A DNA stretch of 59,227 bases, taken from positions 1 to 59,227 of the forward strand of contig CAYZDV010000002.1 of assembly GCA_964477275.1 (NCBI GenBank), in the 5' to 3' direction. The position numbers and the translations under genes were made by a program. Shown piece by piece: positions 2,775-57,072 of the stretch (positions within the stretch are counted from its first letter, which is position 1; each line of letters starts with the position of its first letter). The DNA is from an uncultured Eubacteriales bacterium. Its GTDB lineage: Bacteria; Acidobacteriota; Aminicenantia; Aminicenantales; Aminicenantaceae. Under the pieces are notes generated by a model. That model saw nothing but the letters and a program-made list of their open reading frames with translations. It was not told where the DNA came from and did no database searches.

Positions 2775-2785
2775 CGGAGAAGCAT

Positions 2786-3007
2786 ATGCAAGAAGAAGTC
2801 AAGAAAGCTCTGGACGAGATCAGGCCTCATCTCAAAGCCGACGGCGGGGATGTGGAGCTGGTCGAGGTCACCGAGGACGGAGTGGTCAAGGTGCGGCTTT
2901 TGGGAGCTTGCGAGGGATGCCCGATGAGGGAGATGACGCTGACCCAGGGCATCGCCAATTTCATCCGGAAGAAAGTGCCCCAGATCAAAGAGGTCAAGGC
3001 CGTCTGA
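2786..3007 (+). CDS. NifU C-terminal domain / Nfu-like Fe-S cluster carrier
   Basis: 73-aa ORF with the Nfu pattern GGDVELVEV...VKVRLLGACEGCP (CxxC) and an SD-like GGAGAAG upstream. Confidence 0.8.
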   Translation: MQEEVKKALDEIRPHLKADGGDVELVEVTEDGVVKVRLLGACEGCPMREMTLTQGIANFIRKKVPQIKEVKAV

Positions 3008-3126
3008 GCCCTCAGAGTGTCGTCCTCTGAGACGGAAAAAATTCGACGGCGATTCCGTTTGACAAAAAAACCAAAAATGAGTAAACAAAGGAGAATCAAG
3101 AAGGAGGTTTCAATAAGAAGGTCGGC

Positions 3127-5634: not shown

Positions 5635-5707
5635 TGGCGAGGGACGGAATCGAACCGCCGACGCAGGGATTTTCAGTCCCTCGCTCTACCGACTGAGCTA
5701 CCTCGCC
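5635..5707 (-). tRNA. tRNA-Phe (anticodon GAA)
   Basis: The reverse complement reads GGCGAGG-TA-GCTC-AGTCGGTA-GAGC-G-AGGGA-CTGAAAA-TCCCT-GCGTC-GGCGG-TTCGATT-CCGTC-CCTCGCC-A. This is a complete 73-nt cloverleaf with GAA at positions 34-36. CCA is not encoded. Confidence 0.93.
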
Positions 5708-35667: not shown

Positions 35668-37188
35668 TTACGAAGCGAAGACGATTTTAAACTCCGTCCC
35701 GTTTTCCCGCCCGACTTCCACAGTCCCATTGAGCTGCTGGATCAGATCCATGACCAGCTTCAATCCCAATGAAGGGGAGCTGCGAAAATCTATCCCTTCA
35801 GGAAGCCCTGTCCCCGTATCTCGCACCGTGAGGGTGGACTTCCCTTTTCTGTCTCGACAGATCTCCACGGAGATTTCTCCTTCTCCGCCTGAGGGGAAAG
35901 CGTGTTTGAGAGAATTGGAGACGAGCTCGGTGACGATCAGGCCGCAGGGAATGGCTTTTTTCAGGTCGAGGGGGACATCCGTGACATTGACTCTGAGCCT
36001 GACATTTTCCGCCCTCTTTCTGTACATGGAAAAAAGATGGGCGGTTAATTTTTTGATGTATTCCGCCAGGTCAACCGAGGCCAGTTCTTGAGATTGATGC
36101 TGCATTTCGTAGAGGATGGCCATCGACTTTATCCGGTCATGGATGTCATCAAAGACTTCCTGGGTTTTCCGGTCAGCGATGCCAGCCGCTTTGATTCTGA
36201 GCAGGCTGGAGATAATCTGCAGGTTGTTTTTGACGCGGTGATGGATTTCCTTGAGAAGGATGTCTTTCTCCTCGAGCGATTTTCGGATTTGTTCGTCGGC
36301 TCGTTTGCGCTCGGTGATATCACGGACATTTCCCAGCACCAGCGTTTGACCTTTGATTTTAACCGGGTATGTTCGGATTTCCACCGCCACTCGAGTGCCG
36401 TTTTTTCTGTTCAAGACAAATTCGTCCGGACCCGTGGGCTTCCGCATAGCATTTTTGACGAGAAGGCGCGCTGCCCTCGGAATATCTTTCGGAGAGAGAA
36501 GATGCAGCTTTAAAAAGCTCTTTCCGACGAGTTCATCTTTTTTATACCCGGTGAGCTGTTCAGCAGCCCTGTTTCCATCTATAAATCTTCCTTTTACGTC
36601 GTTGAGATAATATCCATCAGGAGCGTATTCAAACAGGATTCTGAACCTCTCTTCAGAGTTTCTCAGCGCTTCTTCCGTCTGCCTGCGTTCGGTGATGTCT
36701 TCGACATAGATTCGACTTCCCACCGCCACCTTTCCTTTGAGGATCGGAGAGACCATGACTTCGAGATGCCGGACAGAGCCGTCTTTCTTGAGGCCCCTGA
36801 AGACATAGGTTGCGGGAACGGCCTTCCCTTTGAGGCGGTTTCTATGAAATCCGGTGACCATCTCCACATCGTCAGGGTGGACGAGCGTCTCGATTGCCTG
36901 GTGTCTCATTTGCTCAGGAGGATATCCGTACAGCTCTGCGGCCTTCTGGTTGGCGTAGACGATATTTCCTTCCTTGTCGTCGATCAAAATGGCGATACTG
37001 GCGTTCTCGACCAGATCCCGGTAAGTGTCTTCAGGCACCGAAAATCCGTCCTTTTTTTCCTCATCTTCATTTCCTGGAGCCATGGATCCGGGATTCCTGC
37101 CCGGCGAATTTTTCATGTCAGCCGGGAGTCCACTTCCCGTTTTCTTTTTGTCTCCCATCTCAGACTCCCTATTATACCCTGAAAACAA
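35668..37188 (-). CDS. Cytoplasmic PAS-PAS sensor histidine kinase, HisKA_2 type
   Basis: 506 aa with no TM segment and two PAS modules. The H-box is EIHHRVKNNLQIISSLL, and the HATPase_c motifs are ELVSNSLKHAF and VRDTGTGLP. Confidence 0.88.
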   Translation of the reverse strand: MFSGYNRESEMGDKKKTGSGLPADMKNSPGRNPGSMAPGNEDEEKKDGFSVPEDTYRDLVENASIAILIDDKEGNIVYANQKAAELYGYPPEQMRHQAIETLVHPDDVEMVTGFHRNRLKGKAVPATYVFRGLKKDGSVRHLEVMVSPILKGKVAVGSRIYVEDITERRQTEEALRNSEERFRILFEYAPDGYYLNDVKGRFIDGNRAAEQLTGYKKDELVGKSFLKLHLLSPKDIPRAARLLVKNAMRKPTGPDEFVLNRKNGTRVAVEIRTYPVKIKGQTLVLGNVRDITERKRADEQIRKSLEEKDILLKEIHHRVKNNLQIISSLLRIKAAGIADRKTQEVFDDIHDRIKSMAILYEMQHQSQELASVDLAEYIKKLTAHLFSMYRKRAENVRLRVNVTDVPLDLKKAIPCGLIVTELVSNSLKHAFPSGGEGEISVEICRDRKGKSTLTVRDTGTGLPEGIDFRSSPSLGLKLVMDLIQQLNGTVEVGRENGTEFKIVFAS

Positions 37189-37266
37189 TTCAGAACAATA
37201 TCCATAAGAACGAGATCGTGGTTTTCATTTCAGAAGCGGGCTGTTCCCTCAATGCTGTCTCCAGGC

Positions 37267-39330
37267 CTATCCGGGCTCATTTCGGTCTCCTCGGCTCCGG
37301 GGTTTTCGACCTCGAGGCCCGGTGTTTGCCTTTGATTCATTTTTCATCCGCATCCGGATACGAAAGCAGGTTCCTTTTGTTCTCTCAACCTGGATTTGGC
37401 CGTGAAGCTGCTCTTTGGCGAGGAGGCACACCAGGTGAAGCCCCAGGGAATCCGCCTTCTGAATGTCCACATTCCGGGGAATGCCGACGCCATTGTCGCT
37501 GACGGTCAGTTCAATTTCGGTGTTATTTATGGGACGTGCGGCGATGCGGATTTCCCCTTTTTGCCGGTCCGGGAAAGCATATTTCAGGGAGTTGGTGACC
37601 AGCTCGTTGATGATCAGGCCGCAGGGAACAGCCGTGTTGATGTCCAGAGAGACATCCTTGATGTCGATGTCCACGCGGATTTTTTGCGGGCTGATTCCGT
37701 ATGAGCTGAAGAGGTAAGCGGTCAGGCTCTCCACGTATTCCGCAAAATCGACGCTGGCCAGGTCCCTGGACCGATAGAGCCTTTCGTGGATGAGCGCCAT
37801 GGATTTGATGCGGTCCTGTGTCGTTTTGAATGTCTCCAGTATCTTTTTATTCTTGATTTGCTGGGCCTGAAGGCTGTGAAGGCTGGAGATGATTTGCATG
37901 TTGTTTTTGACCCGGTGATGGATTTCCTGAAGGAGCGTTTCTTTTTCCCTGAGGGAAGCTTTGATCTGTTCCTCCGTGCGTTTGATATCGGTGATGTCGC
38001 GGTAGATGCCGTAGCTGGCAACCTGCGCACCGCCAATCACGATGGGTGCGGCCAGAACATGAACATCGATGGGTGTTCCGTCCTTTTTCTGACGCACAGC
38101 CTCAAAGGAGAGATTCTCTCCTTTGACCACATTTTTTGTGATGGAACAGGCATTTTCCTTAAGGTTTGCAGGAACGATCAGTTCGTCCACGTTCTGGCCG
38201 GCAGCCTCTTCCGGGGTGAAGCCGAACAGCTTCATAAATTCTTTGTTTATCCTCTGGATTCTGCCCTGATTATCTGTCAGGACAATGGCCTCCTGGACAT
38301 TCTCGAAGAGCTGATTGAGGTGGACTTCACTGGCGTGCAGTTCTTGCTCGGCTCGTTTCATTTCCGTGATATCGATCAAGGCGGCCTGGATAGCGGGCCT
38401 GTTCAGGAATGTGATGCGGCTGGCGAACATCTCCATCCACATCACCTCGCCGTCCTTACGGAAGAAGCGGAACTCGTAGTGAGGCGGGACTTTTTTCCCT
38501 TCCAGCCTGGCCTTCATGCGTCCCCAGACCAGCTCCTGATCTTCCGGGTGAACGAGGCTTTTGACTTTTTCAGGCGAAAGAGACAGCAGCTCATCGATCG
38601 TGAAGCCTGAAATTTTGGCCATTGCGGCATTGGCAAACACGATGCGGAAATCCTTGAGGATGACAATCCCCTGGAGCGATTGTTCGACCTGCTCCCGGTA
38701 TTTTCTCTCGCTTTTTCTCAGCTCCTTCTCAATGCGTTTCCGCTGCTGGATTTCTGCTCTCAGGATGCGGTTGAGGGTCAGAAGCTCGGCGGTCCGCTTC
38801 TCCACTCTCTGTTCCAGCTCATTGCGGGCTTGCCGGAGCGCCTCTTCCATTTTTTTCCGGTCCGTGATATCTCGCGCAACCCCCAGAGCTGCCACCACCC
38901 GACCTTCGGAGTCGAATATGGGTGCGGCGTTATTGAGAATATGGAGGTAGGATCCATTCCTCCTTCTATACCTGTATTCCATATTGTCCACTTTCCGGCC
39001 CGCCGTCAATCGAGAAAATCGCTTTTTTACCCTCGCCAGGTCTTCCGGATGAACGAGGTCAAAACCGTTCATCTGCTTGATGATGTTTTCCGGATAGCCG
39101 AGCGTTTCGACCAGAGCCCTGTTCACGAACAGAAAGTTGCCCGTCAGGTCGACGATAAACATCATGTCGGCGGAGGATTCCACAAACAGCCTGAACTTTC
39201 GTTCCGGCTCTTTGATGAGCTGTTCATCATGGAAGCCGTAGATATTGGCGACCTCCATCTCTTTTACGCGCTGACGGAGCCCGGTCAATTCAGCAATGAG
39301 CTCTTCTTTGGATTTTTTCTCATCTTTCAT
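37267..39330 (-). CDS. Cytoplasmic multi-PAS sensor histidine kinase, HisKA_2 type
   Basis: 687 aa with no TM segment and three to four PAS modules separated by coiled-coil linkers. The H-box is EIHHRVKNNMQIISSL, and the HATPase_c motifs are ELVTNSLKYAFP and VSDNGVGIP. Confidence 0.88.
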   Translation of the reverse strand: MKDEKKSKEELIAELTGLRQRVKEMEVANIYGFHDEQLIKEPERKFRLFVESSADMMFIVDLTGNFLFVNRALVETLGYPENIIKQMNGFDLVHPEDLARVKKRFSRLTAGRKVDNMEYRYRRRNGSYLHILNNAAPIFDSEGRVVAALGVARDITDRKKMEEALRQARNELEQRVEKRTAELLTLNRILRAEIQQRKRIEKELRKSERKYREQVEQSLQGIVILKDFRIVFANAAMAKISGFTIDELLSLSPEKVKSLVHPEDQELVWGRMKARLEGKKVPPHYEFRFFRKDGEVMWMEMFASRITFLNRPAIQAALIDITEMKRAEQELHASEVHLNQLFENVQEAIVLTDNQGRIQRINKEFMKLFGFTPEEAAGQNVDELIVPANLKENACSITKNVVKGENLSFEAVRQKKDGTPIDVHVLAAPIVIGGAQVASYGIYRDITDIKRTEEQIKASLREKETLLQEIHHRVKNNMQIISSLHSLQAQQIKNKKILETFKTTQDRIKSMALIHERLYRSRDLASVDFAEYVESLTAYLFSSYGISPQKIRVDIDIKDVSLDINTAVPCGLIINELVTNSLKYAFPDRQKGEIRIAARPINNTEIELTVSDNGVGIPRNVDIQKADSLGLHLVCLLAKEQLHGQIQVERTKGTCFRIRMRMKNESKANTGPRGRKPRSRGDRNEPG

Positions 39331-39440
39331 CTTCCACTCTCCGCAGGCTTTTTTCTCTCCACCTCCAGGGGACCCTTCTGCTGGACCTGCTTATCCATTC
39401 ATCGGAAACTCGTGCATTCCCGTTCTTTGCATTTTGAATT

Positions 39441-40808
39441 TCAGGGCACCTGGAAAGCGAATTTTTTTGTTTGAAAGAGCCGGGTGCAAATATGAACGAC
39501 GGTCGGGTCGTAAAGAATGTTTTTATTCTTGTTGATTTCACTCAGGCTGATTGTGAGTCCGAGGGCCGGTCGGTAAGGACGGGGGGAGGACATGGCCTCG
39601 ACCACATCAGCGACGGCGAGAATCTTGGCCTCCAGGAGTATTTTATCGCCCGGCAGGCCCTGAGGATACCCTGAACCGTTGATTCTCTCATGGTGCTGGT
39701 AGACAATCTGGGCCACCGGATAGGGAAAGTCGACGGATTTCAAAATATTGTGTCCCACCAGAGGGTGCATCTTGATCATTTGGAATTCAATCTCTGAGAG
39801 GAGGGCGGGTTTGATGAGAATCTCGACCGGGATGTTGATCTTTCCCACATCATGGATCAGGCTGGCATAGCGCAGCCCTTCAATCTGCTCTTCGGGAAGG
39901 CCCATCTCCCGGGCGATGGCATAGGCCAGGCTGGTCACTCTCCTTTGATGGCCGACTGTGTAAGGGTCTCTGATCTCCAGGGCAGAGACCAGGGCGTTGA
40001 TCGTCTCCTCGAATGTTTTCCGCAACCTCTCCAGGGTGTTTTTGAGTTTTTCCTCTGCCCGCCTGCGTTGGGTGACATCCCTTATGATTCCGATTTCTTT
40101 CACATTTTTATGATTTCCAATGGTGACGGTATTGGCCTCGATGATCCGGATTCCTTTGTCCCTGGAGATGATACGGAACTCGCTCCCGTGAGGGATTGTC
40201 TCTCCCTTCTGTTTGGCCTTTTCCCTTTCCATGAGCAGCGGGATGTCTTCCGGGTGGACAATATTCCAGAAATTGAATTCGGCGTTGCACAATTCTTCCT
40301 TTCTCAGGCCGGTGAGCCTTTCAAAGGCCGGGTTGACATACTGGAAGCCGTTCAGGGTGCTGATGTAGATGGCGTCGTATGCGTTCTCAGCCAGGCTCCG
40401 GTATTTCTCTTCGCTTTCTTTGAGTTTCTCCTCCATCTCATGCTTGTAGAGAGCGATCTCGATGGCGGTGTGAATGTCCCTGTCCTGGAAGGGCTTGATG
40501 ATATAGCCGAGCGGCTCTGTGACCTTCGCCCGTTCCAGGGTTTTTTTATCGCTATAGGCCGTGAGATAAACGATGGGAGTGTTGAAGCGGCTCTGGATGG
40601 CCTCAGCGGCCTCGATGCCGTCCATTTTGCCGCTCAGGACGATGTCCATCAATACCAGGTCGGGAAGCGTTTTTTCCGCTTTTCGGACCGCATCTTCCCC
40701 GGAGGAGGCGATCCCACAAACCTCATAGCCCAGTTTTGCGAGGCACAACCGGAGGTCCTCGGACACGATGCGTTCATCCTCGACGATCAAAATCCGGGTT
40801 TTATTCAT
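39441..40808 (-). CDS. Response regulator: REC-PAS-HD-GYP (putative c-di-GMP phosphodiesterase)
   Basis: 455 aa with a REC domain ([10 protein letters not shown]...DLVLMDIVL), a PAS domain, and an HD-GYP domain (HDVGKINIP...HHERINGSGYPQGL). Confidence 0.88.
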   Translation of the reverse strand: MNKTRILIVEDERIVSEDLRLCLAKLGYEVCGIASSGEDAVRKAEKTLPDLVLMDIVLSGKMDGIEAAEAIQSRFNTPIVYLTAYSDKKTLERAKVTEPLGYIIKPFQDRDIHTAIEIALYKHEMEEKLKESEEKYRSLAENAYDAIYISTLNGFQYVNPAFERLTGLRKEELCNAEFNFWNIVHPEDIPLLMEREKAKQKGETIPHGSEFRIISRDKGIRIIEANTVTIGNHKNVKEIGIIRDVTQRRRAEEKLKNTLERLRKTFEETINALVSALEIRDPYTVGHQRRVTSLAYAIAREMGLPEEQIEGLRYASLIHDVGKINIPVEILIKPALLSEIEFQMIKMHPLVGHNILKSVDFPYPVAQIVYQHHERINGSGYPQGLPGDKILLEAKILAVADVVEAMSSPRPYRPALGLTISLSEINKNKNILYDPTVVHICTRLFQTKKFAFQVP

Positions 40809-40867
40809 GCTGAGATACCTCTCTGGCGAGATGGGGATTAAAGAATTCCCAATTGAGCCGAAAAACG

Positions 40868-41254
40868 CTACCTCGTTCCATTTTTTATCTGGAGAATACT
40901 GGAAATTTTGGACCTGAGAATCCCTGTTTCAACAGGCTTGACGAGATAATCCTCGCAGTACATTCCTGCGGCCTTGATCTTGGATTCGTCTCCGTTTTTC
41001 GCGGTGAGCATGATCACGGGAATATGGTATGTTTTTTCGTTCTCCTTCAGCTTTTTCAACACTTCAAACCCGTCGAGGCCGGGCATCATGATGTCGAGGA
41101 TAATCAGGTCCGGTTTCTCTTTGAGGGCGGTTCTTATTCCTTTTTTCCCTCTGTTTGACGTGATGACCACGCTGTTGGTGGTGAGCTCCAGGTTTGTTTT
41201 CAGGAAATAGGCGAAATCCTCTTCGTCATCGATAATCAGGATTTTCTTTCTCAT
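40868..41254 (-). CDS. Stand-alone CheY-like receiver protein
   Basis: 128 aa with [27 protein letters not shown] and VIMLTAK. Its start overlaps the upstream kinase gene by 29 nt. Confidence 0.88.
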
Positions 41255-42794
41255 TTATGGTTCCTCCTGTCGATCGCGCCAGGGGCAGAGCGACTCTAAC
41301 AGTCGTCCCTGCTCCTGGCCGGCTTTCGATTTCCAAAGAGCCCTTATGATTGTCGACGATCATCTTTGTCATGAACAAACCGAGGCCCGTTCCTTTTTTA
41401 TCCCTTTTTGTGGAAAAAAATGGTTCGAAGATTTTCGGCAGGTTCTCTTCCGGAATTCCCTCTCCCGTATCCTTGACTTCGATGATACAGAGCGCGCTGT
41501 CCGGGCAAGAAGGGGGACGATTCAATTTGTATGTTTTCACCGAAATCCTTCCGCCTTTTGGCATGGCGTCGATGGCATTCATCAGGAGGTTTAAGAGAAC
41601 CTGGAGCATCTGATTCCTGTCCACATCAACAGAGATGTCTTCTGCTTCGGCCTCGGCCTTGATTTTGATGTTTTTTAAAGGAATCCTGAATTTCAAAAGA
41701 GAAAGAGCTTCATCTATCAAATCTTGCGGCCTGATCCTTTCAGGTGTTGCCCCGGACGAAGGTCTGGCAAACTTTAATAAATCCTGAACGATTGCGTTGG
41801 CTCTGGTGACCGAGTCTTTCATCTTTTTTATGGCGGTTTTCACATCTTCATCGAGATGGGAAAGTTTCATTTCCAGAAATTCTGCCCCGCTCAGGATGAT
41901 TCCGAGGGGATTTTTGATCTCATGGGCCACTCCGGCGGAAAATCTTCCCAGAGCTGCCAGCTTTTCGGACTGGATGAGTTCGTGCTGCGTTTTCTTCAGG
42001 TCCTCATAGGCGTTTTTGAGCTCATCCATTGTTTTCTTTCGTTCTGACATATCCTGAAACACCAGCACCGCACCGGAAATCCCTCGTTTTTCCAGGATGA
42101 TCGGAGCGCAGTTGTGAATGATGGGAATTTTCCTTTTGTTTTTGGTCACAAGCGTTGCTTGATTCGTCGGTTCGCGAGAAATTCCATCGCCGAGCAGCTT
42201 TGATGCGGAGTCCTCAATCGGCTCGCCTGTTTCTTCATTCGTGATCACGAACACCTCTTTCAAAGGCATGCCCTCAGCCTCATCCTGCGTCCATCCGGTT
42301 AAATTTTCTGCTGCGGGGTTCATGAAGATGATGTTTCCCTTTCTGTCGGTGGCGATGACCGCATCGCCGATGCTGTTGAGCGTGGTGGAAAGCCATTCCT
42401 CGCTTTCTCTTAACTTCTTCTCTATTCTGTGCTTGTAGAGGGCGATTTCTATAATGGAGTGCAACTCTCTGTCGTCGAAGGGCTTGATGATGTAGCCAAA
42501 GGGTTCTGTCACTTTGGCTCGTTCCAGAGTCTTATGGTCGGAATAAGCGGTCAGGTAGATGATGGGAGCATCGAGGAGCGAGCGAATTCTCTGGGCGACC
42601 TCCACGCCATCCATCTTCCCTTGAAGGACGATGTCCATCAGCACCAGGTCAGGCTGCGTCTTCTGAGCCTTTGAAATGGCTTCCTCCCCGGAATGGGCTG
42701 TTCCGCAGACCTGGTGGCCGAGCCTCTCCAGGCTCATCTTGATGTCTTCGGCGACGATGCGCTCGTCTTCGACGATGAGAATGTGTTTTTTCAT
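41226..42794 (-). CDS. Hybrid REC-PAS-HisKA-HATPase_c histidine kinase
   Basis: 522 aa with an N-terminal REC and a PAS domain. The classical H-box is [12 protein letters not shown], with an N box [11 protein letters not shown] and a G box VKDTGEGIP...GTGLGL. Confidence 0.88.
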
Positions 42795-43380: not shown

Positions 43381-43410
43381 TTGACAAAAATTCATCCTCT
43401 CTGAATAATA
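43381..43410 (+). promoter_or_regulatory. Sigma70-type promoter (TTGACA ... TGAATAAT) with embedded ATTCA-N7-TGAAT operator-like palindrome
   Basis: TTGACA lies at 43381-43386, and a TG-extended AT-rich -10 lies at 43402-43410. The palindrome at 43390-43406 occupies the spacer and -10 region. SD AAAGGAGAG and a GTG start follow at 43433. Confidence 0.45.
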
Positions 43411-43432: not shown

Positions 43433-44998
43433 GTGGCCAGACTCTACGAGTACCAGAGCAAGGAGCTGCTGAAGGACGCGGGGATTCGTGTTCCCGAGGG
43501 AGAGGTGGCTTCCTCTCCTCAGGAGGCGCGCCGGATCGCGGAGAAGCTGGCCAGGCCGGTAGTCCTCAAGATCCAGGTCTGGTTGACCGGAAGAGCTGGC
43601 ATGGGCGGGATCCAGTTTGCCGAATCACCCCGTGAAGCGGAACAGGCCGCCGGCCGGATGCTGGGGATGATTGCCGGCCATTTCGTCATCGACAGGGTTC
43701 TCGTCGAGGAAAAACTCGCCATCCAGTCCGAGTATTTTGCCGGATTGGTCATCGACGATGCCCGGAAGTGCCCTGTCGTCATTTTCAGCTCTGCCGGAGG
43801 GACCGGAATCGAGGACATCGCCCGCCGTCACCCGGAAAAGGTGGTTCGGACGCCGGTCGATGTCTTGACCGGGTTAAGGGATTTTGAGGCCCGAAACCTT
43901 CTCCGGCGAGCCGGAATCCGGGGCCGGCATCTTCTTTCCCTGGCCGATGTCCTGACCAGACTGTATGCGGTTGGCCGCCTCTGGGACGCCCGCTCAGCGG
44001 AGATCAACCCGCTGGCGGTCACCGAAGATGGCACGGTGTATGCCGCTGACTGCCATCTGGCCATCGATGACTATGCGGTCTTCCGCCATCCGGAGCTGGG
44101 AATAGAAGTGGCCAGGGAGTTCGACCGGCCGCCGAGCGAGCTGGAGAAAATCGCCTACCGGGTTGAGGAAAAGGACCACCGGGGAACATTCTATTTCCTG
44201 CAGATGGTCGATGAGGTCCCTCCCGGGGAAAAATTCATCGGGTTTCACGGCGCCGGCGGCGGCGGGTCGATGATGTCCATGGATGCCCTGCTGGCCAGAG
44301 GGTTCAAGCTGGCCGATTACTGTGACACCAGCGGAAATCCTTCGGCGAGCAAGGTCTACCGGGCGGCCAGGATCATCCTCTCCCAGCCGAACATCATCGG
44401 CTATTTTGCCTCAGGCTCAGGCGTGGCCAGCCAGGAACAGTACCACTCCGCCCGGGGCTTGGTCAAGGCTTTCCACGAGGAGAACCTCGGGATTCCGGCC
44501 GTCATCCGGCTCGGCGGGAATTTCGAGGAAAAGGCGATGGAGATTCTGGCCGCTTACCTCAAAGACATTCCGGCCCGGGTGGAAGGATACGGCCGGGATG
44601 ACTCGCCGGAGTTCTGCGCCCGCCGGCTGGAGGAGCTGACCGGGCAGGGAAAAATTGTTCCCCACAAGGTCAGACCTCTCGTCGACCCTGAAGTTTCTCC
44701 GGATGCCTATGCGTTCGAGACGCTGACCGGAAGGCTTTTCATCGACCACCGCCGGTGCCCGAGCTGCAGATCCAGAGGATGCATCGAAGCCTGCGCACCG
44801 CAGATCCTGAAGCTTATGGAGGGAAAGCCTGTGCTGGCGGTCTCCACTGAGGAAGCCAGGAAGGGCCGGTGCACCGAATGCCTGGCCTGTGAAATCTTCT
44901 GCCGGTTTCACGAGCAGGATGCCATCGTCATCCATCTCCCCATTACCGGACTGAAGGAGTACAGGGACAACATCATCGCCAGGCAGAATTCAGAATGA
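43433..44998 (+). CDS. Succinyl-CoA synthetase beta-like ATP-grasp subunit (citryl-CoA synthetase large-subunit-like) with C-terminal ferredoxin-type double Cys motif
   Basis: 521 aa with a SucC-like N-terminus (MARLYEYQSKELLKDAGIRVP) and a divergent CoA-ligase domain (GFHGAGGGGSMMSMD). An added tail carries CPSCRSRGCIEAC and CTECLACEIFC (nt 44756-44902). The start is GTG. Confidence 0.75.
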   Translation: MARLYEYQSKELLKDAGIRVPEGEVASSPQEARRIAEKLARPVVLKIQVWLTGRAGMGGIQFAESPREAEQAAGRMLGMIAGHFVIDRVLVEEKLAIQSEYFAGLVIDDARKCPVVIFSSAGGTGIEDIARRHPEKVVRTPVDVLTGLRDFEARNLLRRAGIRGRHLLSLADVLTRLYAVGRLWDARSAEINPLAVTEDGTVYAADCHLAIDDYAVFRHPELGIEVAREFDRPPSELEKIAYRVEEKDHRGTFYFLQMVDEVPPGEKFIGFHGAGGGGSMMSMDALLARGFKLADYCDTSGNPSASKVYRAARIILSQPNIIGYFASGSGVASQEQYHSARGLVKAFHEENLGIPAVIRLGGNFEEKAMEILAAYLKDIPARVEGYGRDDSPEFCARRLEELTGQGKIVPHKVRPLVDPEVSPDAYAFETLTGRLFIDHRRCPSCRSRGCIEACAPQILKLMEGKPVLAVSTEEARKGRCTECLACEIFCRFHEQDAIVIHLPITGLKEYRDNIIARQNSE

Positions 44999-45035: not shown

Positions 45036-45947
45036 ATGGCGATACTGGTCAACGAGAAATCCCGGGTGGTCGTCCAGGGGATAACCGGCCGCGAGGGCAT
45101 GGCGCGCACCAGTCTGATGAAGGACTACGGAACACAGGTGGTGGCCGGGGTGACTCCTGGAAAAGGCGGAGAAGAGGTGTATGGCATTCCTGTCTTCGAC
45201 TCGGTGGAAGAAGCCTTCGAGGAGACGGGGCCGCTCGATGCGAGCGTCATCTTTGTCCCCGCCTTCCTGGTCAAGGACGCGGCCCTGGAGGCGATCGAGG
45301 CGGGAGTGAAACTCCTGGTCCTCGTCCCCGACCGGGTGCCCATCTATGATGTCCTGGAGATTGCCCGCCTGGCTCGGGAGAAAGGAGCCTGTTTTGTCGG
45401 GCCCAATACCCTCGGCCTGGTCAGCCCGGGAAAAGCGGTGCTGGGCATGATTGGCGGCCGGGCCGAGCGGGCCAGGGAATGGTTTTGTCCGGGCGATGTC
45501 GGAGTCAGCTCGAGAAGCGGCGGCATGACCTCTGCGATCTCGTATTACATGACCACGGCCGGCTTCGGCCAGAGCACCATCATCCATGTCGGCGGGGACG
45601 CGGTGGTCGGCCTTTCCCATCCCGAAGTCATGGAGCTCTTCGAGCAGGATGAGGAGACGCGGCTGGCGGTGATGTTCGGGGAAATCGGCACCAGCCAGGA
45701 AGAGCGCGTGGCCGACCTCATTGAGGCAGGGAATTTCACCAAGCCCCTGGTGGCCTATATCGGCGGAAAAGCGGCCAAGTCTGGAACCCGCTTCTCCCAT
45801 GCCGGGGCTATCGTCGAGGGCAGCCGGGGATCCTATGAAAGCAAAGTCGAGCGGCTGAGAGAGGCGGGCGTCCATCTGGCCGAATCGGTCGCCGACATCC
45901 CGGGAATTATCAGCCGCCTGAAGGGGAAAAAGGGAGGAACGAGATGA
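45036..45947 (+). CDS. Succinyl-CoA synthetase alpha-like subunit (citryl-CoA synthetase small-subunit-like)
   Basis: 303 aa, collinear with SucD: VVVQGITGREG, GVTPGKGG, SRSGGMTS, GFGQST, and the phosphohistidine loop SHAGAI. Confidence 0.85.
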   Translation: MAILVNEKSRVVVQGITGREGMARTSLMKDYGTQVVAGVTPGKGGEEVYGIPVFDSVEEAFEETGPLDASVIFVPAFLVKDAALEAIEAGVKLLVLVPDRVPIYDVLEIARLAREKGACFVGPNTLGLVSPGKAVLGMIGGRAERAREWFCPGDVGVSSRSGGMTSAISYYMTTAGFGQSTIIHVGGDAVVGLSHPEVMELFEQDEETRLAVMFGEIGTSQEERVADLIEAGNFTKPLVAYIGGKAAKSGTRFSHAGAIVEGSRGSYESKVERLREAGVHLAESVADIPGIISRLKGKKGGTR

Positions 45948-46723
45948 GCGAGCTTCACTGGAAAACAGCCATCACCGACGTCCAGCCGAATAAAATCTGC
46001 CTGAGAGGATATCCCATCGACAGATTGATGGGAAAGGTCTCCTTTGCTCAGGCCATCTACCTTGTCCTGAAAGGGGAGTTCCCGTCGACTGAGGTGGGGA
46101 AGCTCATCGATGCCATTTTCGTCTCTTCCATCGACCACGGCGCCAGCCCTCCTTCGGTGCTGACCGCCCGGACCGTGGCCTCGACCGGCGCTGAGCTGAA
46201 CGCCGCCATCGCCGCCGGTGTGCTGGCCATTTCCCGCTACCACGGAGGAGCGATCGAGGAGGGGATGCGCCTTTTCCTCGACATCGCTGGCCGGATGGAA
46301 GAGAGAAAGGCTCCGCTGGATGACGTCGCAGCTGAGGTCCTGGAAGAGATGAAGGCAGAAAAAAAGCGGGCGTCTGGTTTCGGCCACCGCATCCACACCA
46401 GGGACCCCAGGACCCAGAAGCTCTTCGATATGGCTGAGGAACTGGGTCTGGCCGGAACGCATGTCCGCATTGCCCGGGCTGTGGAAAAGGTGCTGGAGAG
46501 ACAGGCCGGCAAACCCCTTCCCATTAACGTGGACGGCGCCATCGCTGCCCTGCTCTGCGACCTCGGCCTGCCTTCCGAGGTTGGCAACGCCTTCTTCATC
46601 ATCGCCCGGGTGCCGGGCCTGGTGGCCCATATCCATGAGGAAAAAATCCGGATGAGGCCGATGAGAAAAATTCATCCTGAGGACTACGCGTATGACGGCC
46701 CGCCGGAAAGGGAAGTCAAATGA
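45944..46723 (+). CDS. Short citrate-synthase-family protein (citryl-CoA lyase-like)
   Basis: 259 aa, corresponding only to the catalytic C-terminal part of citrate synthase (RYHGGAIEE, GFGHRIHTRDPR). It has an ATGA overlap with the upstream gene. Confidence 0.75.
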   Translation: MSELHWKTAITDVQPNKICLRGYPIDRLMGKVSFAQAIYLVLKGEFPSTEVGKLIDAIFVSSIDHGASPPSVLTARTVASTGAELNAAIAAGVLAISRYHGGAIEEGMRLFLDIAGRMEERKAPLDDVAAEVLEEMKAEKKRASGFGHRIHTRDPRTQKLFDMAEELGLAGTHVRIARAVEKVLERQAGKPLPINVDGAIAALLCDLGLPSEVGNAFFIIARVPGLVAHIHEEKIRMRPMRKIHPEDYAYDGPPEREVK

Positions 46724-47256
46724 GAAGAGACGAGATTCTCTCTTTAATGCCCGAGCTGCGGATCATCGGGGACGCCGAGCTCAAGGAAAAAACGATCACT
46801 GTCTGGGTCGAAGCCATCAAAAAAGGCGGATGGACCGCAGATGACCTCCAGCGCATGCCGTTCACTTTGCTCATCGAAGGGACAGGGGTGAACATCATCG
46901 AGCACACCCGGGCGGTCACCCTCTGTTCGCTGGAGATCCACCGCGTGTTAAAGGAGATGTACGAGGAGAGAATTGACATCAACCGGGATTATCTTCTCTC
47001 CGGCGCCCTTCTTCACGATGTGGGAAAGCTGTTCGAGTACAGGAAAGTGAAGGAGAAATTCCTCAAGAGCGGGGAGGGAAAGCTTCTCCGTCATCCGATT
47101 TCCGGCGCTGCCTTTGCCTCCCGGCACGGGCTTCCGCCTGAGGTGGTCCACATCATCGCCGCTCATTCCAAGGAAGGCGACGGAGCCCGGGCGACGGTGG
47201 AAGCGGTGATCGTCAACCATGCGGATTTCGTCAATTTCGAGGCCCTGAAGCTTTAG
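46720..47256 (+). CDS. HD-domain metal-dependent phosphohydrolase
   Basis: 178 aa with the H...HD...H...D pattern (IIEHTRAV, LLHDVGK, LLRHPISG, NHADF). It has an ATGA overlap with the upstream gene. Confidence 0.75.
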   Translation: MRRDEILSLMPELRIIGDAELKEKTITVWVEAIKKGGWTADDLQRMPFTLLIEGTGVNIIEHTRAVTLCSLEIHRVLKEMYEERIDINRDYLLSGALLHDVGKLFEYRKVKEKFLKSGEGKLLRHPISGAAFASRHGLPPEVVHIIAAHSKEGDGARATVEAVIVNHADFVNFEALKL

Positions 47257-47274: not shown

Positions 47275-48528
47275 TTGGGCAAGACGTTCTCGGAGAAGAT
47301 CCTCGGCCGCAAGGCTGGCCGCGAGGTTCGAGCCGGTGAGGTCATCACGGCCTCCCCGGATTTCATTCTCTCCCATGATAATTCCGCGGCTATCATCCAG
47401 GAATTCCAGAAGCTGGGCGTGGAGAGAGTGAGCTGCCCCCGGAAGCTGGTCATCATCCTCGACCACGTGGTCCCTGCCTCCACCGAAAAATACGCCCTGA
47501 ACCACAAGATGATCCGGGAGTTCGTCAAGGTGCAGGAACTCTCCCACTTCTTCGATGTCAGCCACGGAATCTGCCACCAGGTTTTCCCAGAGAATGGATT
47601 TGCCCTGCCCGGGAAACTGATCCTGGGTGCTGACTCCCATACCACGACCTATGGCGCGTTTGGCGCCTTCTCAGCCGGCATCGGCCGCTCGGAAGTGGCC
47701 GCTCTCTGGGCCACCGATGAGACCTGGTTGAAGGTTCCGGAGACGCTGAGAGTGGTCATCGAAGGCCGGCTTCCTCCGGGAGTCTATGCCAAGGACATTA
47801 TTCTCAGGGTCATCGGCGACCAGGGTGCAGACAGAGCCAACTACATGGCTGTGGAGTTTGGCGGTGATGTGGTGAAGCAGTTAAGTCTGGCTTCCCGGAT
47901 GGTGCTCTGCAACATGAGTGCCGAGATGGGCGCCAAGAACGGCTACTGCGAGCCGGACCAAAAGCTTCTCCGCTGGCTCCGGGGACGGGCTCAGGATGAG
48001 TTTGAGGTGGTCGTCTCCGACCCGGATGCCACATATGAACAAACGCTCCATTACGATGTCTCTTCTCTGGAGCCGCAGGTGGCCTGCCCTCACAGCGTGG
48101 ACAATGTCCGGCCGGTCTCCGAAGTCGAGGGAACGGAGTTTGATCAGGCACTGCTCGGCACCTGCACCAACGGCCGGCTCGAGGATCTGGAGGCGGCGGC
48201 CAGAATCCTCGGGGGTAAGGCCGTCCGCTCCGGAGTGAGGGTTCTGGTCATTCCGGCCTCCCGGCAGGAATACCTGATGGCTCTGCGGAAAGGAGTCATT
48301 GAAGCCCTGGCTGCTGCAGGCTGTCTTATCCTCAACCCGGGCTGCGGACCCTGTCTCGGGGCGCACCAGGGAATTCTGGCTCCCGGCGAGGTGGCCCTGA
48401 GCACAGCCAACCGGAATTTCCGCGGCCGGATGGGAAGCCGGGATGCGGAGATCTACCTGGCCTCACCGGCGACAGTGGCGGCCTCGGCCCTGGAGGGAAA
48501 AATCACCGACCCGAGGAAATATTCATGA
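47275..48528 (+). CDS. Aconitase-family dehydratase large subunit (LeuC/HacA type), paralogue 1
   Basis: 417 aa with GADSHTT, cluster Cys in GTCTNGR and NPGCGPCLG, and substrate motif NRNFRGRMG. The start is TTG. Confidence 0.85.
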
Positions 48529-49031
48529 AGAAAGGAAGAGTCTGGAAATACGGCGATAATGTCAACACAGATGTCATCTTCCCGGGCAAATACACATACT
48601 CGGTGCTCGAACCGGCGGAGATGGCCCGGCATGCGCTGGAAGACCTGGACCCGGATTTCAGCCGGAACGTCAGGGCCGGCGATGTCGTTGTCGCGGGCCG
48701 CAACTTCGGCTGCGGAAGCTCGCGGGAGCAGGCAGCCACCTGCCTCAGGACTTCCGGCATCCAGGCTGTTGTGGCCAAATCCTTTGCCCGGATTTTCTAC
48801 CGCAACGCCATCAACCAGGGGCTTCCGGCCCTCCAGTCCGAGGAGGCGGCCGAGAAGATCGAAAACGGAGAGGAAATTGCCATCGATTTTGCCCGGGGCG
48901 AGATCAAAACAGAAAAAGGACTGTTTCCCTTCAACCCTTTCCCCGATTCGGTCCTGGGCATTCTGGAGGAGGGAGGCCTCATTCCCTACACCATGAAAAA
49001 ATTGAAGAAGGCGCGGAGGAGGTGTCCATGA
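48525..49031 (+). CDS. Aconitase-family dehydratase small subunit (LeuD/HacB type), paralogue 1
   Basis: 168 aa with [27 protein letters not shown] and [11 protein letters not shown]. It overlaps upstream by 4 nt. Confidence 0.85.
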
Positions 49032-50143
49032 AAAGGTACAGAATTGCCGTGCTCCCCGGAGATGGCGTGGGAAAGGATGTCATGGAAGCAGCCATGATCG
49101 TGCTGGAGACACTCAAGCTCGATGCGGAATACGTTCAGGGTGATATCGGATGGGAGTTCTGGTGCCGGGAAGGAAATCCCCTTCCCGATCGGACGGTCAA
49201 AATGCTCAAGGAGACCGATGTCTGCCTGTTCGCAGCCATCACCTCCAAGCCCAAGGAGGATGCCCTCAGAGAGCTCGACCCGGGGTTGAGGAACAAGGGA
49301 TATTCCTATTTCAGCCCCATCGTCCGCCTGCGTCAGGAATTCGACCTCTACACCAACCTCCGGCCCTGCAAAGCCTATCCCGGCAACTCGCTCAATTACC
49401 GCGATGATATCGACCTCGTCATCTTCCGGGAGAACACCGAGGGGATGTACGCGGGCGTGGAATTCCATCCACTTCCCGAAGAAGTGCGTCAGGGGCTGCT
49501 CATCCATCCCAAGATGGCCAGGTTCAGGGATATTCCCGCTGAGGAGGTCGCCCTCTCAACCAGGATCATGACCCGGAAAGCCTGCCAGAGAATTGTCAGG
49601 CGAGCCTTCGAATACGCACAAAAGCGGAAGCGCCGCTCCGTGACCCTGGTGGAGAAGCCAAATGTGCTTCGCGAGACAGGGGGGTTCATCCTCGATATCG
49701 CCAGAGATATTGCCAGAGAGTTCCCGGATGTGGAATTCCGGGAGGCCAACGTCGATGCCATGGCCATGTGGCTGGTCAAGAATCCGCAGGACTACGATGT
49801 CCTGGTGGCTGAAAACCTCTTTGGCGACATCATTTCCGACCTCGCCGCCCAGCTGGTCGGCGGACTCGGCTTTGCCTGCAGCGGCAATATCGGCGACGCG
49901 TATGCGGTCTTTGAGCCGACCCACGGCTCGGCTCCCAAGTATACCGGCCTCTACAAGGTGAACCCGACAGCGATGCTCCTGGCCGCCAAGATGATGCTGG
50001 AATGGCTGGGAGAAGAGGAGAAGGCGCGCCGCCTGGAAGAGGCTGTCGCCCGGGTCATCCAGGAGGGAAAGGTCCGGACCTACGACATGGGCGGCGGCGC
50101 CACCACGCTCGATGTGGCCCGCGAAGTCGCCTCAAAGCTATAA
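49028..50143 (+). CDS. Isocitrate / homoisocitrate / 3-isopropylmalate dehydrogenase family enzyme
   Basis: About 371 aa with [37 protein letters not shown] and [12 protein letters not shown]. An inserted segment after RENTEG resembles the ICDH branch. ATG 49028 overlaps the upstream TGA. Confidence 0.8.
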
Positions 50144-50155
50144 AAAAAATATCAG

Positions 50156-51421
50156 ATGGGCAAGACAATCATCGAGAAAATCATCCAGGAGCACAGCCGG
50201 GAAGAGGTCCGGCCGGGAAAGATCGTCTGGATGGACATTGACCTTCGCACGGCCCGGGACTTCGGCGGCCCCAACGTGGTCAAGCACTATGAAAGGGAAT
50301 ATGATGACCTGCCGGTTGCTGACAGGAAGAAGACCTTCTTCACCTTTGACCTCTGCGTCCCGGCCTGCATGCTCAAATACGCCTCGGGCCAGCAAATCTG
50401 CCGGCAGTTTGCCAGAAAACAGGAAGTCAGGGTCTTTGATGTGGAAAACGGAATCGGCTCCCATGTCCTGATCGAGGAAGGCCTGGCCAGGCCGGGGACG
50501 ACCGTTGTCGGGACCGACAGCCACCTCAACATCCTCGGCGCAGTGGGTTCGTTCGGCCAGGGGATGGGCGATGTGGACATCGCCTTTGCTTTCAGGACAG
50601 GAAAGACCTGGTTTGAGGTTCCCCGGACCATCCGGGTCAACGTGAAAGGCCGTACCGGCCCCGCAGCAACGGCCAAAGACCTCACCCTTTACCTCCTGAA
50701 GCTGCTGGGGACGAAGGTGGCGGCCCTGAAGGCCGTCGAGTTCTACGGCGAGGCAGTGAGGGAGCTCACGCTTTCCGGCCGGATCACTCTCTGCAGCATG
50801 GTCACAGAGATGGCCGGCATCGCCGGTTTCATTCCCGAGAGCAGCAGGTCTTTTCTCTCCGACATGGAAATCCTGTGGGCAGAGAAGTTTCTCCATCCTG
50901 TGGCCGATTCCGACTGCGCCTATTCGGAACTCCTGGAGGTCGATGTGAGCGGGCTCGGCCCTCAGGTGGCCGTGCCCTTTTCTCCGGATAAGGTGGAGGA
51001 TGTTTCCGGGCTCAAGAAAATCAAAATCGACACGGGATTCATCGGCTCCTGCACCAACGGCCGCAGCGAAGACCTGGCCCTCGCCGCCCGCATCCTCAAA
51101 GGGAAGAAAATCAAGGATGGGGTGACGCTCAAGGTTGTCCCGGCCACCCGGCGGGTTTACCGGGAAATCCTGGAGAAGGGCATCCTGGAGGACCTTTTCC
51201 GCAGCGGCGCGGTGATCGGAAACCCGGGCTGCGCCGGCTGTGCCGAGGGCCATATCGGCCTGACGGGCGAGGGTGAGGTTCAAATCAGCACCGGCAACCG
51301 GAATTTTGCCGGCAAGCAGGGAAAGGGAATGACCTATCTGGCCAGTCCCGCGGTGGTGGCTGCGTCCTGTCTGGCTGGTCACATCGCCAGTCCCCAAGAT
51401 GTAGAGAGAGATGATGTATAA
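50156..51421 (+). CDS. Aconitase-family dehydratase large subunit, divergent paralogue 2
   Basis: 421 aa that retains the three cluster Cys (GSCTNGR, NPGCAGCAEG). It has GTDSHLN instead of DSHT and NRNFAGKQG instead of NRNFxGR. Confidence 0.8.
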   Translation: MGKTIIEKIIQEHSREEVRPGKIVWMDIDLRTARDFGGPNVVKHYEREYDDLPVADRKKTFFTFDLCVPACMLKYASGQQICRQFARKQEVRVFDVENGIGSHVLIEEGLARPGTTVVGTDSHLNILGAVGSFGQGMGDVDIAFAFRTGKTWFEVPRTIRVNVKGRTGPAATAKDLTLYLLKLLGTKVAALKAVEFYGEAVRELTLSGRITLCSMVTEMAGIAGFIPESSRSFLSDMEILWAEKFLHPVADSDCAYSELLEVDVSGLGPQVAVPFSPDKVEDVSGLKKIKIDTGFIGSCTNGRSEDLALAARILKGKKIKDGVTLKVVPATRRVYREILEKGILEDLFRSGAVIGNPGCAGCAEGHIGLTGEGEVQISTGNRNFAGKQGKGMTYLASPAVVAASCLAGHIASPQDVERDDV

Positions 51422-51522
51422 TGGGGTTGTTCCAAAGCGGTGGGACAAAATGAGAGGAAGTTCCTTTTCAGGATGTCAATGAATTCGCGCCGGAATTTAA
51501 CCAAATAAACAATAGAGACAGG

Positions 51523-52065
51523 ATGAAAGAATCGCGCATTTCGGGAAGGATCTGGGTGCTGGCCGGCGAAGACGGCCGTCTGATCGAGGATGTCGATACC
51601 GACCAGATCTACCACAATGCCTTCCTTCATATTACCGACATCGCTGAGATGGGCCAGTATGCTCTGGGCAACCTGAAGGGATGGGAGGATTTCCCCCGCA
51701 AGGCCCGGCCAGGCGACGTTCTCGCTGCCGGCCGGAATTTTGGAGGCGGGTCCTCCCGCCAGCAGGCCGTGGACTGTTTTCGTTCCCTGAGCATCGGCCT
51801 GATCCTGGCGCCTTCTTTTGGAGCCATATATTTCCGGAACGCCGTCAACTCCGGCCTGCCCGTTCTCAGATGCGTTGGCCTTGAGGAACTGGTTGCAGAC
51901 AAGCGCTTTCGGAACGGCGATGATGTTCGAGTCGATCTCCGCTCCGGCAAAGGCCTGAACGTCAGCCGGAATTTCTCTTTTCCGGTGATGCCGATGAGTT
52001 CTATTCAGCTCGAGATCTTCGAGGCCGGCGGACTTTTCCATTACGGAAGAAAAATCCAGAAGTAG
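51523..52065 (+). CDS. Aconitase-family dehydratase small subunit, divergent paralogue 2
   Basis: 180 aa with DVDTDQIYHNAF, GRNFGGGSSRQQA (canonical GCGSSREHA) and FGAIYFRNAVN. Confidence 0.8.
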   Translation: MKESRISGRIWVLAGEDGRLIEDVDTDQIYHNAFLHITDIAEMGQYALGNLKGWEDFPRKARPGDVLAAGRNFGGGSSRQQAVDCFRSLSIGLILAPSFGAIYFRNAVNSGLPVLRCVGLEELVADKRFRNGDDVRVDLRSGKGLNVSRNFSFPVMPMSSIQLEIFEAGGLFHYGRKIQK

Positions 52066-56484: not shown

Positions 56485-57072
56485 ATGACATTTTTTGAGG
56501 GCCGAAAGATGAGAAAAAATAATTCTCTATTCATTCGCAGGAGAGAGTTCATTGCCTCTGCATCGGCGCTCGCCCTGGGAGTCGGACTTGGGGATGTAGC
56601 GCTTTTTTCGTCGAGCCTCACACCGTGGAGCCAGGAGCTCAGGGAGGAGCTTTCGCCAGAGGAGGTTGAAATTGTCAAAAACTCGGTGATGGCCAGGGAC
56701 CTTGAGAACTATTTCGGGAAAGGCTACAACTGTGCAGAGTCGCTCTTCATGGTCTCATTGAATTTTTTAGGGAAACCCGGCGAGCTTGTCTGGATTGCCT
56801 GCGGATTTGGTGGGGGGATGGGCCATAAGGACCTCTGTGGATTTCTGACAGCCGCTTACATGGCCATCGGTCTTTCCGCGGGGATGCGGGGAAAGGAGAG
56901 GAAGGAAGCCAAGGAGCAGTGCACGAATACAATCAAGGAGTACTGGAAGTGGTGGGCCTCCCTGGCCGCCATCCACTGTTCTGAGATTCGCAAAGAGGGA
57001 ACAAGCGCCAAGGTCTGCCGCCGGATCGGCCAGCTGGCCGCCGCCAGGGTGGAAGAGCTGCTGAAAAAGTGA
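56485..57072 (+). CDS. C_GCAxxG_C_C-family putative redox protein with twin-arginine signal
   Basis: It has the Tat-like motif RRREFIASASALALGVGLG. The family Cys pattern is GYNCAESLF, ACGFGGGMG, LCGFLTAAYMAIG and HCSE. The probable start is ATG 56509. Confidence 0.7.
   Translation: MTFFEGRKMRKNNSLFIRRREFIASASALALGVGLGDVALFSSSLTPWSQELREELSPEEVEIVKNSVMARDLENYFGKGYNCAESLFMVSLNFLGKPGELVWIACGFGGGMGHKDLCGFLTAAYMAIGLSAGMRGKERKEAKEQCTNTIKEYWKWWASLAAIHCSEIRKEGTSAKVCRRIGQLAAARVEELLKK

Follow-up and report, generated by a model that had tools for sequence, protein, structure and literature searches.

Textbooks class succinyl-coenzyme A (succinyl-CoA) synthetase, citryl-CoA synthetase and ATP-citrate lyase among the non-redox enzymes, and their ligase and lyase reactions involve no electron transfer. 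In the succinyl-CoA synthetase of Thermus aquaticus (PDB entry 3ufx) the beta chain SucC is composed of an ATP-grasp and a CoA-ligase domain and is paired with an alpha chain carrying the catalytic histidine. In Hydrogenobacter thermophilus a two-subunit ligase of the SucC type, the citryl-CoA synthetase CcsA/CcsB (6hxq), goes together with a short lyase of the citrate-synthase fold; ATP-citrate lyase (Chlorobium, 6hxj; human ACLY) belongs to the same superfamily. None of the solved ligase structures matched in this analysis contains an iron–sulfur (Fe–S) domain, and no description of such a domain on this ligase family was found in the full-text literature (subscription journals were outside the scope of that search). 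Here, a 59,227-nucleotide stretch of DNA from an uncultured bacterium of the Aminicenantes lineage (GenBank contig CAYZDV010000002.1, positions 1 to 59,227; in the following, the window) was analysed, which encodes a 521-residue beta-type ligase subunit with a cysteine-rich extension at its C-terminus. The extension is homologous to dicluster ferredoxins, its cysteines are conserved or are lost in a correlated manner, it occurs both fused to the ligase and as a separate gene, and the fused gene stands at the head of a conserved operon.

The protein resembles both described synthetases in its core and departs from both in its tail. Residues 3–195 matched Pfam ATP-grasp_2 over the full model length (E = 2e-50), and the closest solved relative was the succinyl-CoA synthetase beta chain of T. 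aquaticus (3ufx_B, residues 3–373, E = 1.6e-65); the large subunit of the Hydrogenobacter citryl-CoA synthetase (6hxq_B) gave E = 2.2e-33. A full-length structure model built from 120 homologues [mean predicted local distance difference test (pLDDT) score 87, predicted template-modelling score 0.83] matched ligase cores alone in a fold search, with SucC beta chains best and CcsA at E = 1.7e-33. SucC is thus the best match in sequence and in fold; unlike it, the window protein has an insertion at residues ~230–265 and extra C-terminal residues including the Cys-rich module. CcsA shares with the window protein the GGGGS and GNP loop motifs, but its solved chain of 429 residues aligns to residues 3–386 and is without such a module. 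Since the window protein is more similar to the Thermus succinyl-CoA synthetase than to CcsA, it probably represents a separate lineage and not a CcsA orthologue. The solved ATP-citrate lyases were likewise matched through the core alone, and none of them carries a ferredoxin-like domain.

The alignment of the core to succinyl-CoA synthetase beta chains reaches only as far as residues ~373–390, and the extension therefore measures ~130 residues, made up of a linker of ~25 residues, a module of ~90 residues and a short end. An earlier note, made from the letters of the window and their translation, had placed a 2x[4Fe–4S] ferredoxin-type domain at the C-terminus of a SucC/CcsA-like ATP-grasp subunit at 44756–44902. 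These coordinates are exact, running from the first nucleotide of the C442 codon to the last of the C490 codon, and the Cys spacing that the note had given (C-x2-C-x4-C-x3-C, 25 residues, C-x2-C-x2-C-x3-C) was recovered in the translation. Its estimate of about 100 residues beyond the usual SucC length was somewhat too small. The tail, read from the translated open reading frame (ORF) and the DNA, is ...DHRRCPSCRSRGCIEACAPQILKLMEGKPVLAVSTEEARKGRCTECLACEIFCRFHEQ..., and eight of the 12 cysteines of the protein fall within one stretch of 49 residues. A single instance of the combined double-Cys pattern was found when the whole window was translated in six frames, and 100,000 shuffles of the 521-residue protein gave none. 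The N-terminus MARLYEYQSK agrees with the starts of homologues, and no stop, frameshift or terminator-like break was found when the core–tail junction was scanned in the window.

By homology, the tail is a dicluster ferredoxin domain. The window tail matched Pfam Fer4_9 at positions 1–48 of 52 with 20.1–21.6 bits (E = 2e-4 to 6.5e-4), and its Pfam and NCBIfam matches were exclusively to 4Fe–4S families, including ferredoxins of the HgcB and OorD types. When 16 diverse homologous tails were searched in the same way, ten of them matched Fer4_9 (best E = 5.5e-6) and none matched a family outside Fer4; the strongest Fer4 match of any relative had E = 3e-6. In the PDB, a profile of these 16 tails had only Fe–S proteins of the ferredoxin type among its listed matches. 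A 2-oxoglutarate:acceptor oxidoreductase came first with its delta subunit (E = 1.1e-4), before a Sulfolobus zinc-ferredoxin (E = 2.4e-4). In the full-length model the tail forms a block with pLDDT 77–91, in which the order strand–strand–helix–strand–strand–helix–helix–strand is arranged around the Cys motifs. The identification of the domain in the earlier note has therefore held, and its description of the spacing as typical of 2x[4Fe–4S] domains has held in part: there are eight cysteines in two motifs, but neither has the canonical form C-x2-C-x2-C-x3-C-P, motif 1 being C-x2-C-x4-C-x3-C-A-P, with a non-canonical four-residue spacing, and motif 2 C-x2-C-x2-C-x3-C-R. HMMER spans the C-x2-C-x4-C part of motif 1 with a two-residue gap relative to canonical motifs. 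Judged from the pattern of ligands, which argues for real clusters, the tail would bind two [4Fe–4S] clusters.

The cysteines are the fixed points of the module. All 120 close homologues (514–551 residues, 70–76% identity) have the tail and 119 of them both Cys motifs; the four cysteines of motif 1 are invariant, as are C480, C486 and C490 of motif 2, with C483 present in 119 of the 120. The residues between the eight cysteines vary freely in this set, the most conserved stretch of the module being CxECLACE, and an end motif of the type LPIPGLxEYR is near-invariant. A profile search that included distant members yielded 115 further full-length homologues (508–607 residues), named in their sources as Acidobacteria, Zixibacteria, Anaerolineae, KSB1, Gemmatimonadetes, Cloacimonetes, Marinimicrobia and others, and every one of the 115 has the eight cysteines at the same spacing, including C-x2-C-x4-C-x3-C. 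Both motifs are thus found in 234 of the 235 full-length homologues listed, which come from many phyla, and the fused architecture reaches down to 30% identity in a representative library clustered at 50% identity. Column conservation among orthologues is as high in the module as in the ATP-grasp domain (0.78) and falls to 0.56 in the linker (elsewhere 0.78–0.90); among distant relatives the linker differs in length and sequence.

Where cysteines have been lost, they have been lost in sets. In ferredoxins of the clostridial type, three of the cysteines that ligate a given cluster come from one motif and the fourth comes from the other. Three homologues (P0138, P0144 and P0272) have lost the first and third cysteines of motif 1 and the last of motif 2, P0138 and P0144 the second of motif 1 as well, and all three retain Cys 4 of motif 1 together with Cys 1–3 of motif 2; given the cross-wise ligation, the cysteines that they keep are the exact ligands of one cluster. 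Single replacements by Asp were seen at Cys 4 of motif 1 (P0165) and at Cys 1 of motif 2 (the stand-alone relative at locus L088). A group from Planctomycetota (P0140, P0167, P0197 and P0219) keeps the whole tail and the end motif with 0–2 of the eight cysteines. This pattern of loss is what would be expected of real cluster ligands on a fold that has an additional, cluster-independent job. In a rough neighbour-joining tree of the core the eight-Cys forms cluster, whether they come from Aminicenantes or from other phyla, and the remaining forms with a module are scattered among ‘tail-less’ ones. One eight-Cys fused homologue (P0352) has the source label ‘Thermofilaceae archaeon’, yet stands among bacterial sequences in this tree, which could reflect mis-binning or lateral transfer.

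The module is encoded in ~458 stretches of species-representative genomes. In the best 80 of these, all from Aminicenantes, the fused ORF is intact at 74 loci; five of the remaining six are cut by a contig end and the other is a 417-residue case. At 65 of 80 metagenome loci the ORF is fused as well, so that in the samples drawn fusion is the commoner state relative to the split form. A word-indexed protein search with the tail alone returned 16 short fragments of the same fusion. The nearest ‘tail-less’ relatives of the ligase have 405–424 residues, and at all four of their loci that were examined, from Bathyarchaeia and metagenome contigs, a stand-alone gene for the module lies beside the ligase genes (Table 1); for these four, a natural absence of the module is unsupported. 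These small proteins (88–111 residues) begin at a YxFxTxTG strand, i.e. past the linker, and most of them end with an LPxPGL-type motif; their Pfam matches are absent or faint. As the module is present either in fusion or as an adjoining gene, it is a recurrent third component of this ligase clade. Among close Aminicenantes relatives, split calls are sequencing or assembly errors or contig ends. One such case is L084 (Aminicenantes-type, 2764–4333), in which the gene is divided into 411 and 110 residues with a 1-nt gap; this is ascribed to an error-prone assembly and not to natural fission because an aconitase gene on the same contig is also broken.

Table 1. Features of the ligase gene and operon (window coordinates) and stand-alone copies of the module at related loci (coordinates of the locus named)
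Feature	Position	Strand	Remarks
Sigma-70-like promoter candidate, TTGACA-17 nt-AATAAT	43381-43409	+	pattern match, 11/12 consensus positions
Ligase large (beta-type) subunit gene with fused ferredoxin-like module	43433-44998	+	single ORF, 521 aa, GTG start
Catalytic core, residues 1-400 (ATP-grasp and C-terminal CoA-ligase-type domain)	43433-44632	+	Pfam, PDB and fold matches
Variable linker, residues 401-424	44633-44704	+	low column conservation, variable length
Ferredoxin-like module, residues 425-515	44705-44977	+	Fer4-only family matches
Cys motif 1, CPSCRSRGCIEAC (C442, C445, C450, C454)	44756-44794	+	read from DNA/translation
Cys motif 2, CTECLACEIFC (C480, C483, C486, C490)	44870-44902	+	read from DNA/translation
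C-terminal motif LPITGLKEYR (consensus LPIPGLxEYR), putative docking element	44936-44965	+	near-invariant in close homologues
Ligase small (alpha-type) subunit, 303 aa, phosphohistidine motif SHAGAI	45036-45947	+	Pfam CoA_binding and Ligase_CoA
Citryl-CoA lyase (short citrate-synthase-fold protein)	45944-46723	+	NCBIfam NF004869
HD/HDIG-domain protein	46720-47256	+	conserved operon member
First LeuCD/HacAB-type aconitase-family hydro-lyase pair	47275-49031	+	large 47275-48528, small 48525-49031
Isocitrate/isopropylmalate/homoisocitrate-dehydrogenase-family enzyme	49022-50143	+	no equivalog cutoff reached
Second LeuCD/HacAB-type hydro-lyase pair	50156-52065	+	large 50156-51421, small 51523-52065
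Stand-alone module, L086 (Bathyarchaeia)	4979-5257		92 aa; overlaps ligase gene end
Stand-alone module, L088	3239-3517		92 aa; 4-nt overlap
Stand-alone module, L089	2310-2645		111 aa; 52% identical to window tail, BLASTP E 6e-30
Stand-alone module, L170	6246-6512		88 aa

The genes that follow the ligase gene resemble those of the Hydrogenobacter system in that an alpha-type subunit and a short citrate-synthase-fold lyase adjoin the large subunit. The alpha-type subunit scored 302.8 bits on TIGR01019, below the cutoff of 353, and the lyase 283.8 bits on NF004869, above the cutoff of 212. The operon is unlike sucCD in having a citryl-CoA lyase as partner and not other typical tricarboxylic acid (TCA) cycle genes, and unlike ATP-citrate lyase in encoding the alpha subunit apart from the lyase; should the ligase and the lyase work one after the other, the overall reaction would be the same as that of ATP-citrate lyase. 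The order of the operon is kept in 80 of 80 Aminicenantes loci, to the extent that their contigs cover it, and on one Anaerolineae contig, and the second hydro-lyase pair is syntenic in many of the Aminicenantes loci. The same gene set stands on a Planctomycetota contig, where alpha subunit and lyase form one chain in the manner of ATP-citrate lyase. From its gene content the operon looks like a route via citrate between acetyl-CoA plus oxaloacetate and 2-oxoglutarate, in one direction or the other, and it points to citrate/2-oxoglutarate metabolism. In the operons with a split module the ligase is paired with a lyase of the citrate-synthase fold or of the HpcH/CitE type, and PrpD, PrpF, glutamate mutase or an HMGL-like synthase are found as neighbours.

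Several further features of the surroundings were recorded. At the Planctomycetota locus (L087, 1876–9035) the ligase has a Cys-depleted variant of the tail, the AclA-like fusion of alpha subunit and lyase has 566 residues, and these genes are followed by an HD protein, a single-chain aconitase, an Iso_dh gene and PrpD. The HD/HDIG protein takes the same operon position in Aminicenantes, Anaerolineae and Planctomycetota loci. The window operon has two hydro-lyase pairs and one LeuB/IDH-type dehydrogenase and is without an aconitase of the AcnA or AcnB type; the two pairs may split the aconitase half-reactions or act on homologous substrates. Upstream, on the minus strand, lies a divergent signalling cluster (35668–42794) with two PAS histidine kinases, a PAS-containing response regulator of the HD-GYP type, a single-domain response regulator and a hybrid receiver–PAS–kinase, separated from the ligase gene by a non-coding gap of ~640 bp. 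The promoter candidate of Table 1, a pattern match alone, lies ~24 nt upstream of the GTG start codon. An Rfam search of the window gave no riboswitch or other known RNA near the ligase gene, the sole match being a tRNA at 5635–5707. A few kilobases downstream of the operon, at 56485–57072, a ‘putative redox-active protein’ of the C_GCAxxG_C_C family is encoded, and no link between it and the operon was seen.

The reading that we favour, with a probability of about 0.55, is that of a citryl-CoA-type ligase bearing a genuine two-[4Fe–4S] module as a non-catalytic structural, docking or assembly part; a structural or regulatory role of the module is most likely. A non-catalytic role is favoured because the ligase chemistry needs no electrons, because the domain has persisted in lineages that lost one cluster or both, and because neither the window nor the related operons examined were found to encode a ferredoxin-dependent oxidoreductase. 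The clusters would stabilise the fold of the module, and the integrity or activity of the enzyme would thereby be tied to anoxic, iron-replete conditions; the LPIPGLxEYR end motif, which is kept in the Cys-free Planctomycetota forms, may serve for docking.

Fe–S domains of this sort are known from other enzymes. ABCE1, an ATPase with an N-terminal Fe–S domain, is one case and the ferredoxin-like domain of subunit Rpo3/D of the archaeal RNA polymerase (D3/FLD) is another. Depending on the lineage, the Rpo3/D domain has two, one or no clusters, and these affect assembly and stability and not the chemistry, for which the domain is dispensable; oxygen or iron sensing has been proposed for them (PMC5300874). 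By analogy, the ligase module might act as the Rpo3/D domain does, both being domains of the dicluster ferredoxin type on a non-redox enzyme with a lineage-dependent number of clusters. The two host proteins have nothing in common, nor do the places at which they carry the domain; beyond the Fer4 superfamily the analogy is one of principle alone.

A number of observations weigh against this interpretation. On the side of the module, the window tail stays below the Pfam gathering score of Fer4_9 (20–21.6 against 27 bits), the spacing of motif 1 (C-x2-C-x4-C-x3-C) is unusual and motif 2 is without the usual trailing proline, and the tail modelled alone is poor, with a pLDDT of 50 that is too low for a separate fold search. 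On the side of its role, a 2-oxoglutarate oxidoreductase provides, with its ferredoxin subunit, the best PDB match of the tail profile, and strict conservation of eight cysteines across many phyla would fit electron transfer too. On the side of the substrate, Pfam Citrate_bind is sub-threshold on the window protein (23.9 against 26.8 bits), and sequence similarity favours the Thermus succinyl-CoA synthetase over the Hydrogenobacter CcsA by the E values given above.

A wider version of the favoured reading is tentative: a large, hitherto unrecognised ligase clade, spread over many anaerobic bacterial phyla and Bathyarchaeia, would as a whole consist of three-component Fe–S enzymes in which the module gates the formation or cleavage of citrate and related acyl-CoA esters by oxygen, iron or redox state. 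The odds are against this wider version.

The substrate is the point on which the best-surviving alternative turns. Because Citrate_bind remains sub-threshold on the window protein (it was recorded for most of its homologues), the case for citrate comes mainly from the adjoining lyase. Together, the ligase, its small subunit and the lyase most probably interconvert citrate, CoA and ATP with acetyl-CoA and oxaloacetate, the ligase being ADP-forming. It is unlikely, although by no means negligible, that the module is real and generic to the clade while the enzyme is a succinyl-CoA synthetase or a malate, citramalate or methylcitrate ligase. The Thermus enzyme is indeed nearest in sequence and in fold, the source annotation reads ‘succinyl-CoA synthetase beta subunit’, relatives stand beside the HpcH/CitE-type lyases, PrpD/PrpF, glutamate mutase or HMGL-like synthase mentioned above, and in Cloacimonetes and Gemmatimonadetes the gene is solitary. 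The SucC models, however, were missed by far (TIGR01016, 239.6 bits against a cutoff of 375.55; NF001913, 238.3 against 370), as was the malate-CoA ligase model (161.8 bits against 604), whereas the adjoining gene passes the citryl-CoA lyase cutoff; genes of the aconitase and isocitrate dehydrogenase families come next in the operon, conserved across three phyla, and the alpha–lyase fusion of Planctomycetota is that of ATP-citrate lyase. The substrate loops of the window protein (GAGGGGS...SGNPSA...ASGSGVAS) are nearer to those of Hydrogenobacter CcsA (GGGGS...GGNPPA) and Chlorobium AclB (AGGGAS...SGDPAD) than to those of succinyl-CoA synthetase (GNGAGL...GGGAKA). The clade as a whole probably uses several substrates. 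Ligase–ferredoxin relatives were seen with PrpD/PrpF and aconitase, with glutamate mutase subunits or with an HMGL-like synthase (L172, 2620–10528; L170, 1667–6512; L089, 1452–6236), neighbours which hint at substrates of the methylcitrate, citramalate or homocitrate type in other members.

As to what the module does, the main rival to a non-catalytic part is a tethered working ferredoxin, by which the citrate enzyme would be docked to a 2-oxoglutarate or pyruvate:ferredoxin oxidoreductase in a metabolon of the reductive TCA type, or electrons would be delivered locally. We regard this as improbable, and as somewhat more so than a different substrate. It would account for the strict conservation of the eight ligand cysteines in most lineages and for the attachment of the module by a variable, probably flexible linker. 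It would also suit the carriers, which by source name belong mostly to uncultured phyla (Aminicenantes, Zixibacteria); one Aminicenantes bin is listed in a paper as an anaerobic fermenter. The oxidoreductase delta subunit at the top of the PDB matches (8ys5_D) is matched over both Cys motifs, which a long hairpin segment separates, and such delta subunits are, like the stand-alone module, small subunits encoded inside the operon of their enzyme. This match is nevertheless weak and of a kind generic for dicluster domains, and the module differs from delta subunits and small ferredoxins in its own flanks, YxFxTxTG at the start and LPIPGLxEYR at the end, and in the two-residue insertion in motif 1. 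Its partner enzyme, moreover, is not an oxidoreductase. Neither the ligase nor the lyase performs redox chemistry, the operons examined are devoid of ferredoxin-dependent oxidoreductases, the module also accompanies ligases of other lyases and pathways, and the domain is kept where one or both clusters are lost. The earlier note had suggested that a cluster could make the ligase redox-sensing or oxygen-sensitive, or couple it physically to ferredoxin-dependent steps. Cys-free descendants, and split versions beside ligases with different lyases, would fit a structural or regulatory accessory better than a pathway-specific electron wire.

In enzymes of the aconitase family Fe–S clusters work as Lewis acids, and a corresponding action of a cluster on the tricarboxylate or on an acyl-phosphate or thioester intermediate would make this a mechanistically new ligase. 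The strict conservation of the cysteines would be in keeping with such a role, which is nonetheless very improbable. Both clusters would have full four-Cys ligation and no open iron site, which argues against a Lewis acid; in addition, the Cys-free Planctomycetota orthologues keep the full operon, the solved succinyl- and citryl-CoA synthetases, matched via the core alone, are all without such a domain, and the linker that ties the module to the core shows poor conservation.

That the ligase gene was merged by a frameshift or misassembly with an independent small ferredoxin gene, a thought to which the small module genes of some lineages and the split calls in some assemblies might lend colour, is ruled out for practical purposes by the unbroken reading frame in the window, the same fused length in 235 independent homologues, the fused ORFs at most of the genome and metagenome loci counted above and the broken aconitase gene in the assembly of the split close relative L084; the earlier note had itself named this objection, and the fusion is no artefact.

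A known enzyme superfamily thus appears to have an undescribed and widespread Fe–S component across many anaerobic phyla. The homologues, which are abundant in databases, bear names there such as ‘succinyl-CoA synthetase beta subunit’, ‘ATP-grasp domain-containing protein’ and ‘acetate--CoA ligase family protein’, and their module goes unannotated. In metagenomic surveys ‘citryl-CoA synthetase/lyase’ genes are taken as markers of the reductive TCA cycle. The fused and split forms make up a clean Rosetta-stone pair, and the natural variants with two, one or no clusters are ready-made experimental controls. For the organisms themselves, the finding suggests that citrate cleavage or synthesis in hundreds of species from poorly known anaerobic phyla may be dependent on oxygen, iron or redox state, or alternatively that the enzyme may belong to a larger assembly; if the redox-gated reading is true, the module would be a redox switch at the place where the TCA cycle of anaerobes is entered and left.

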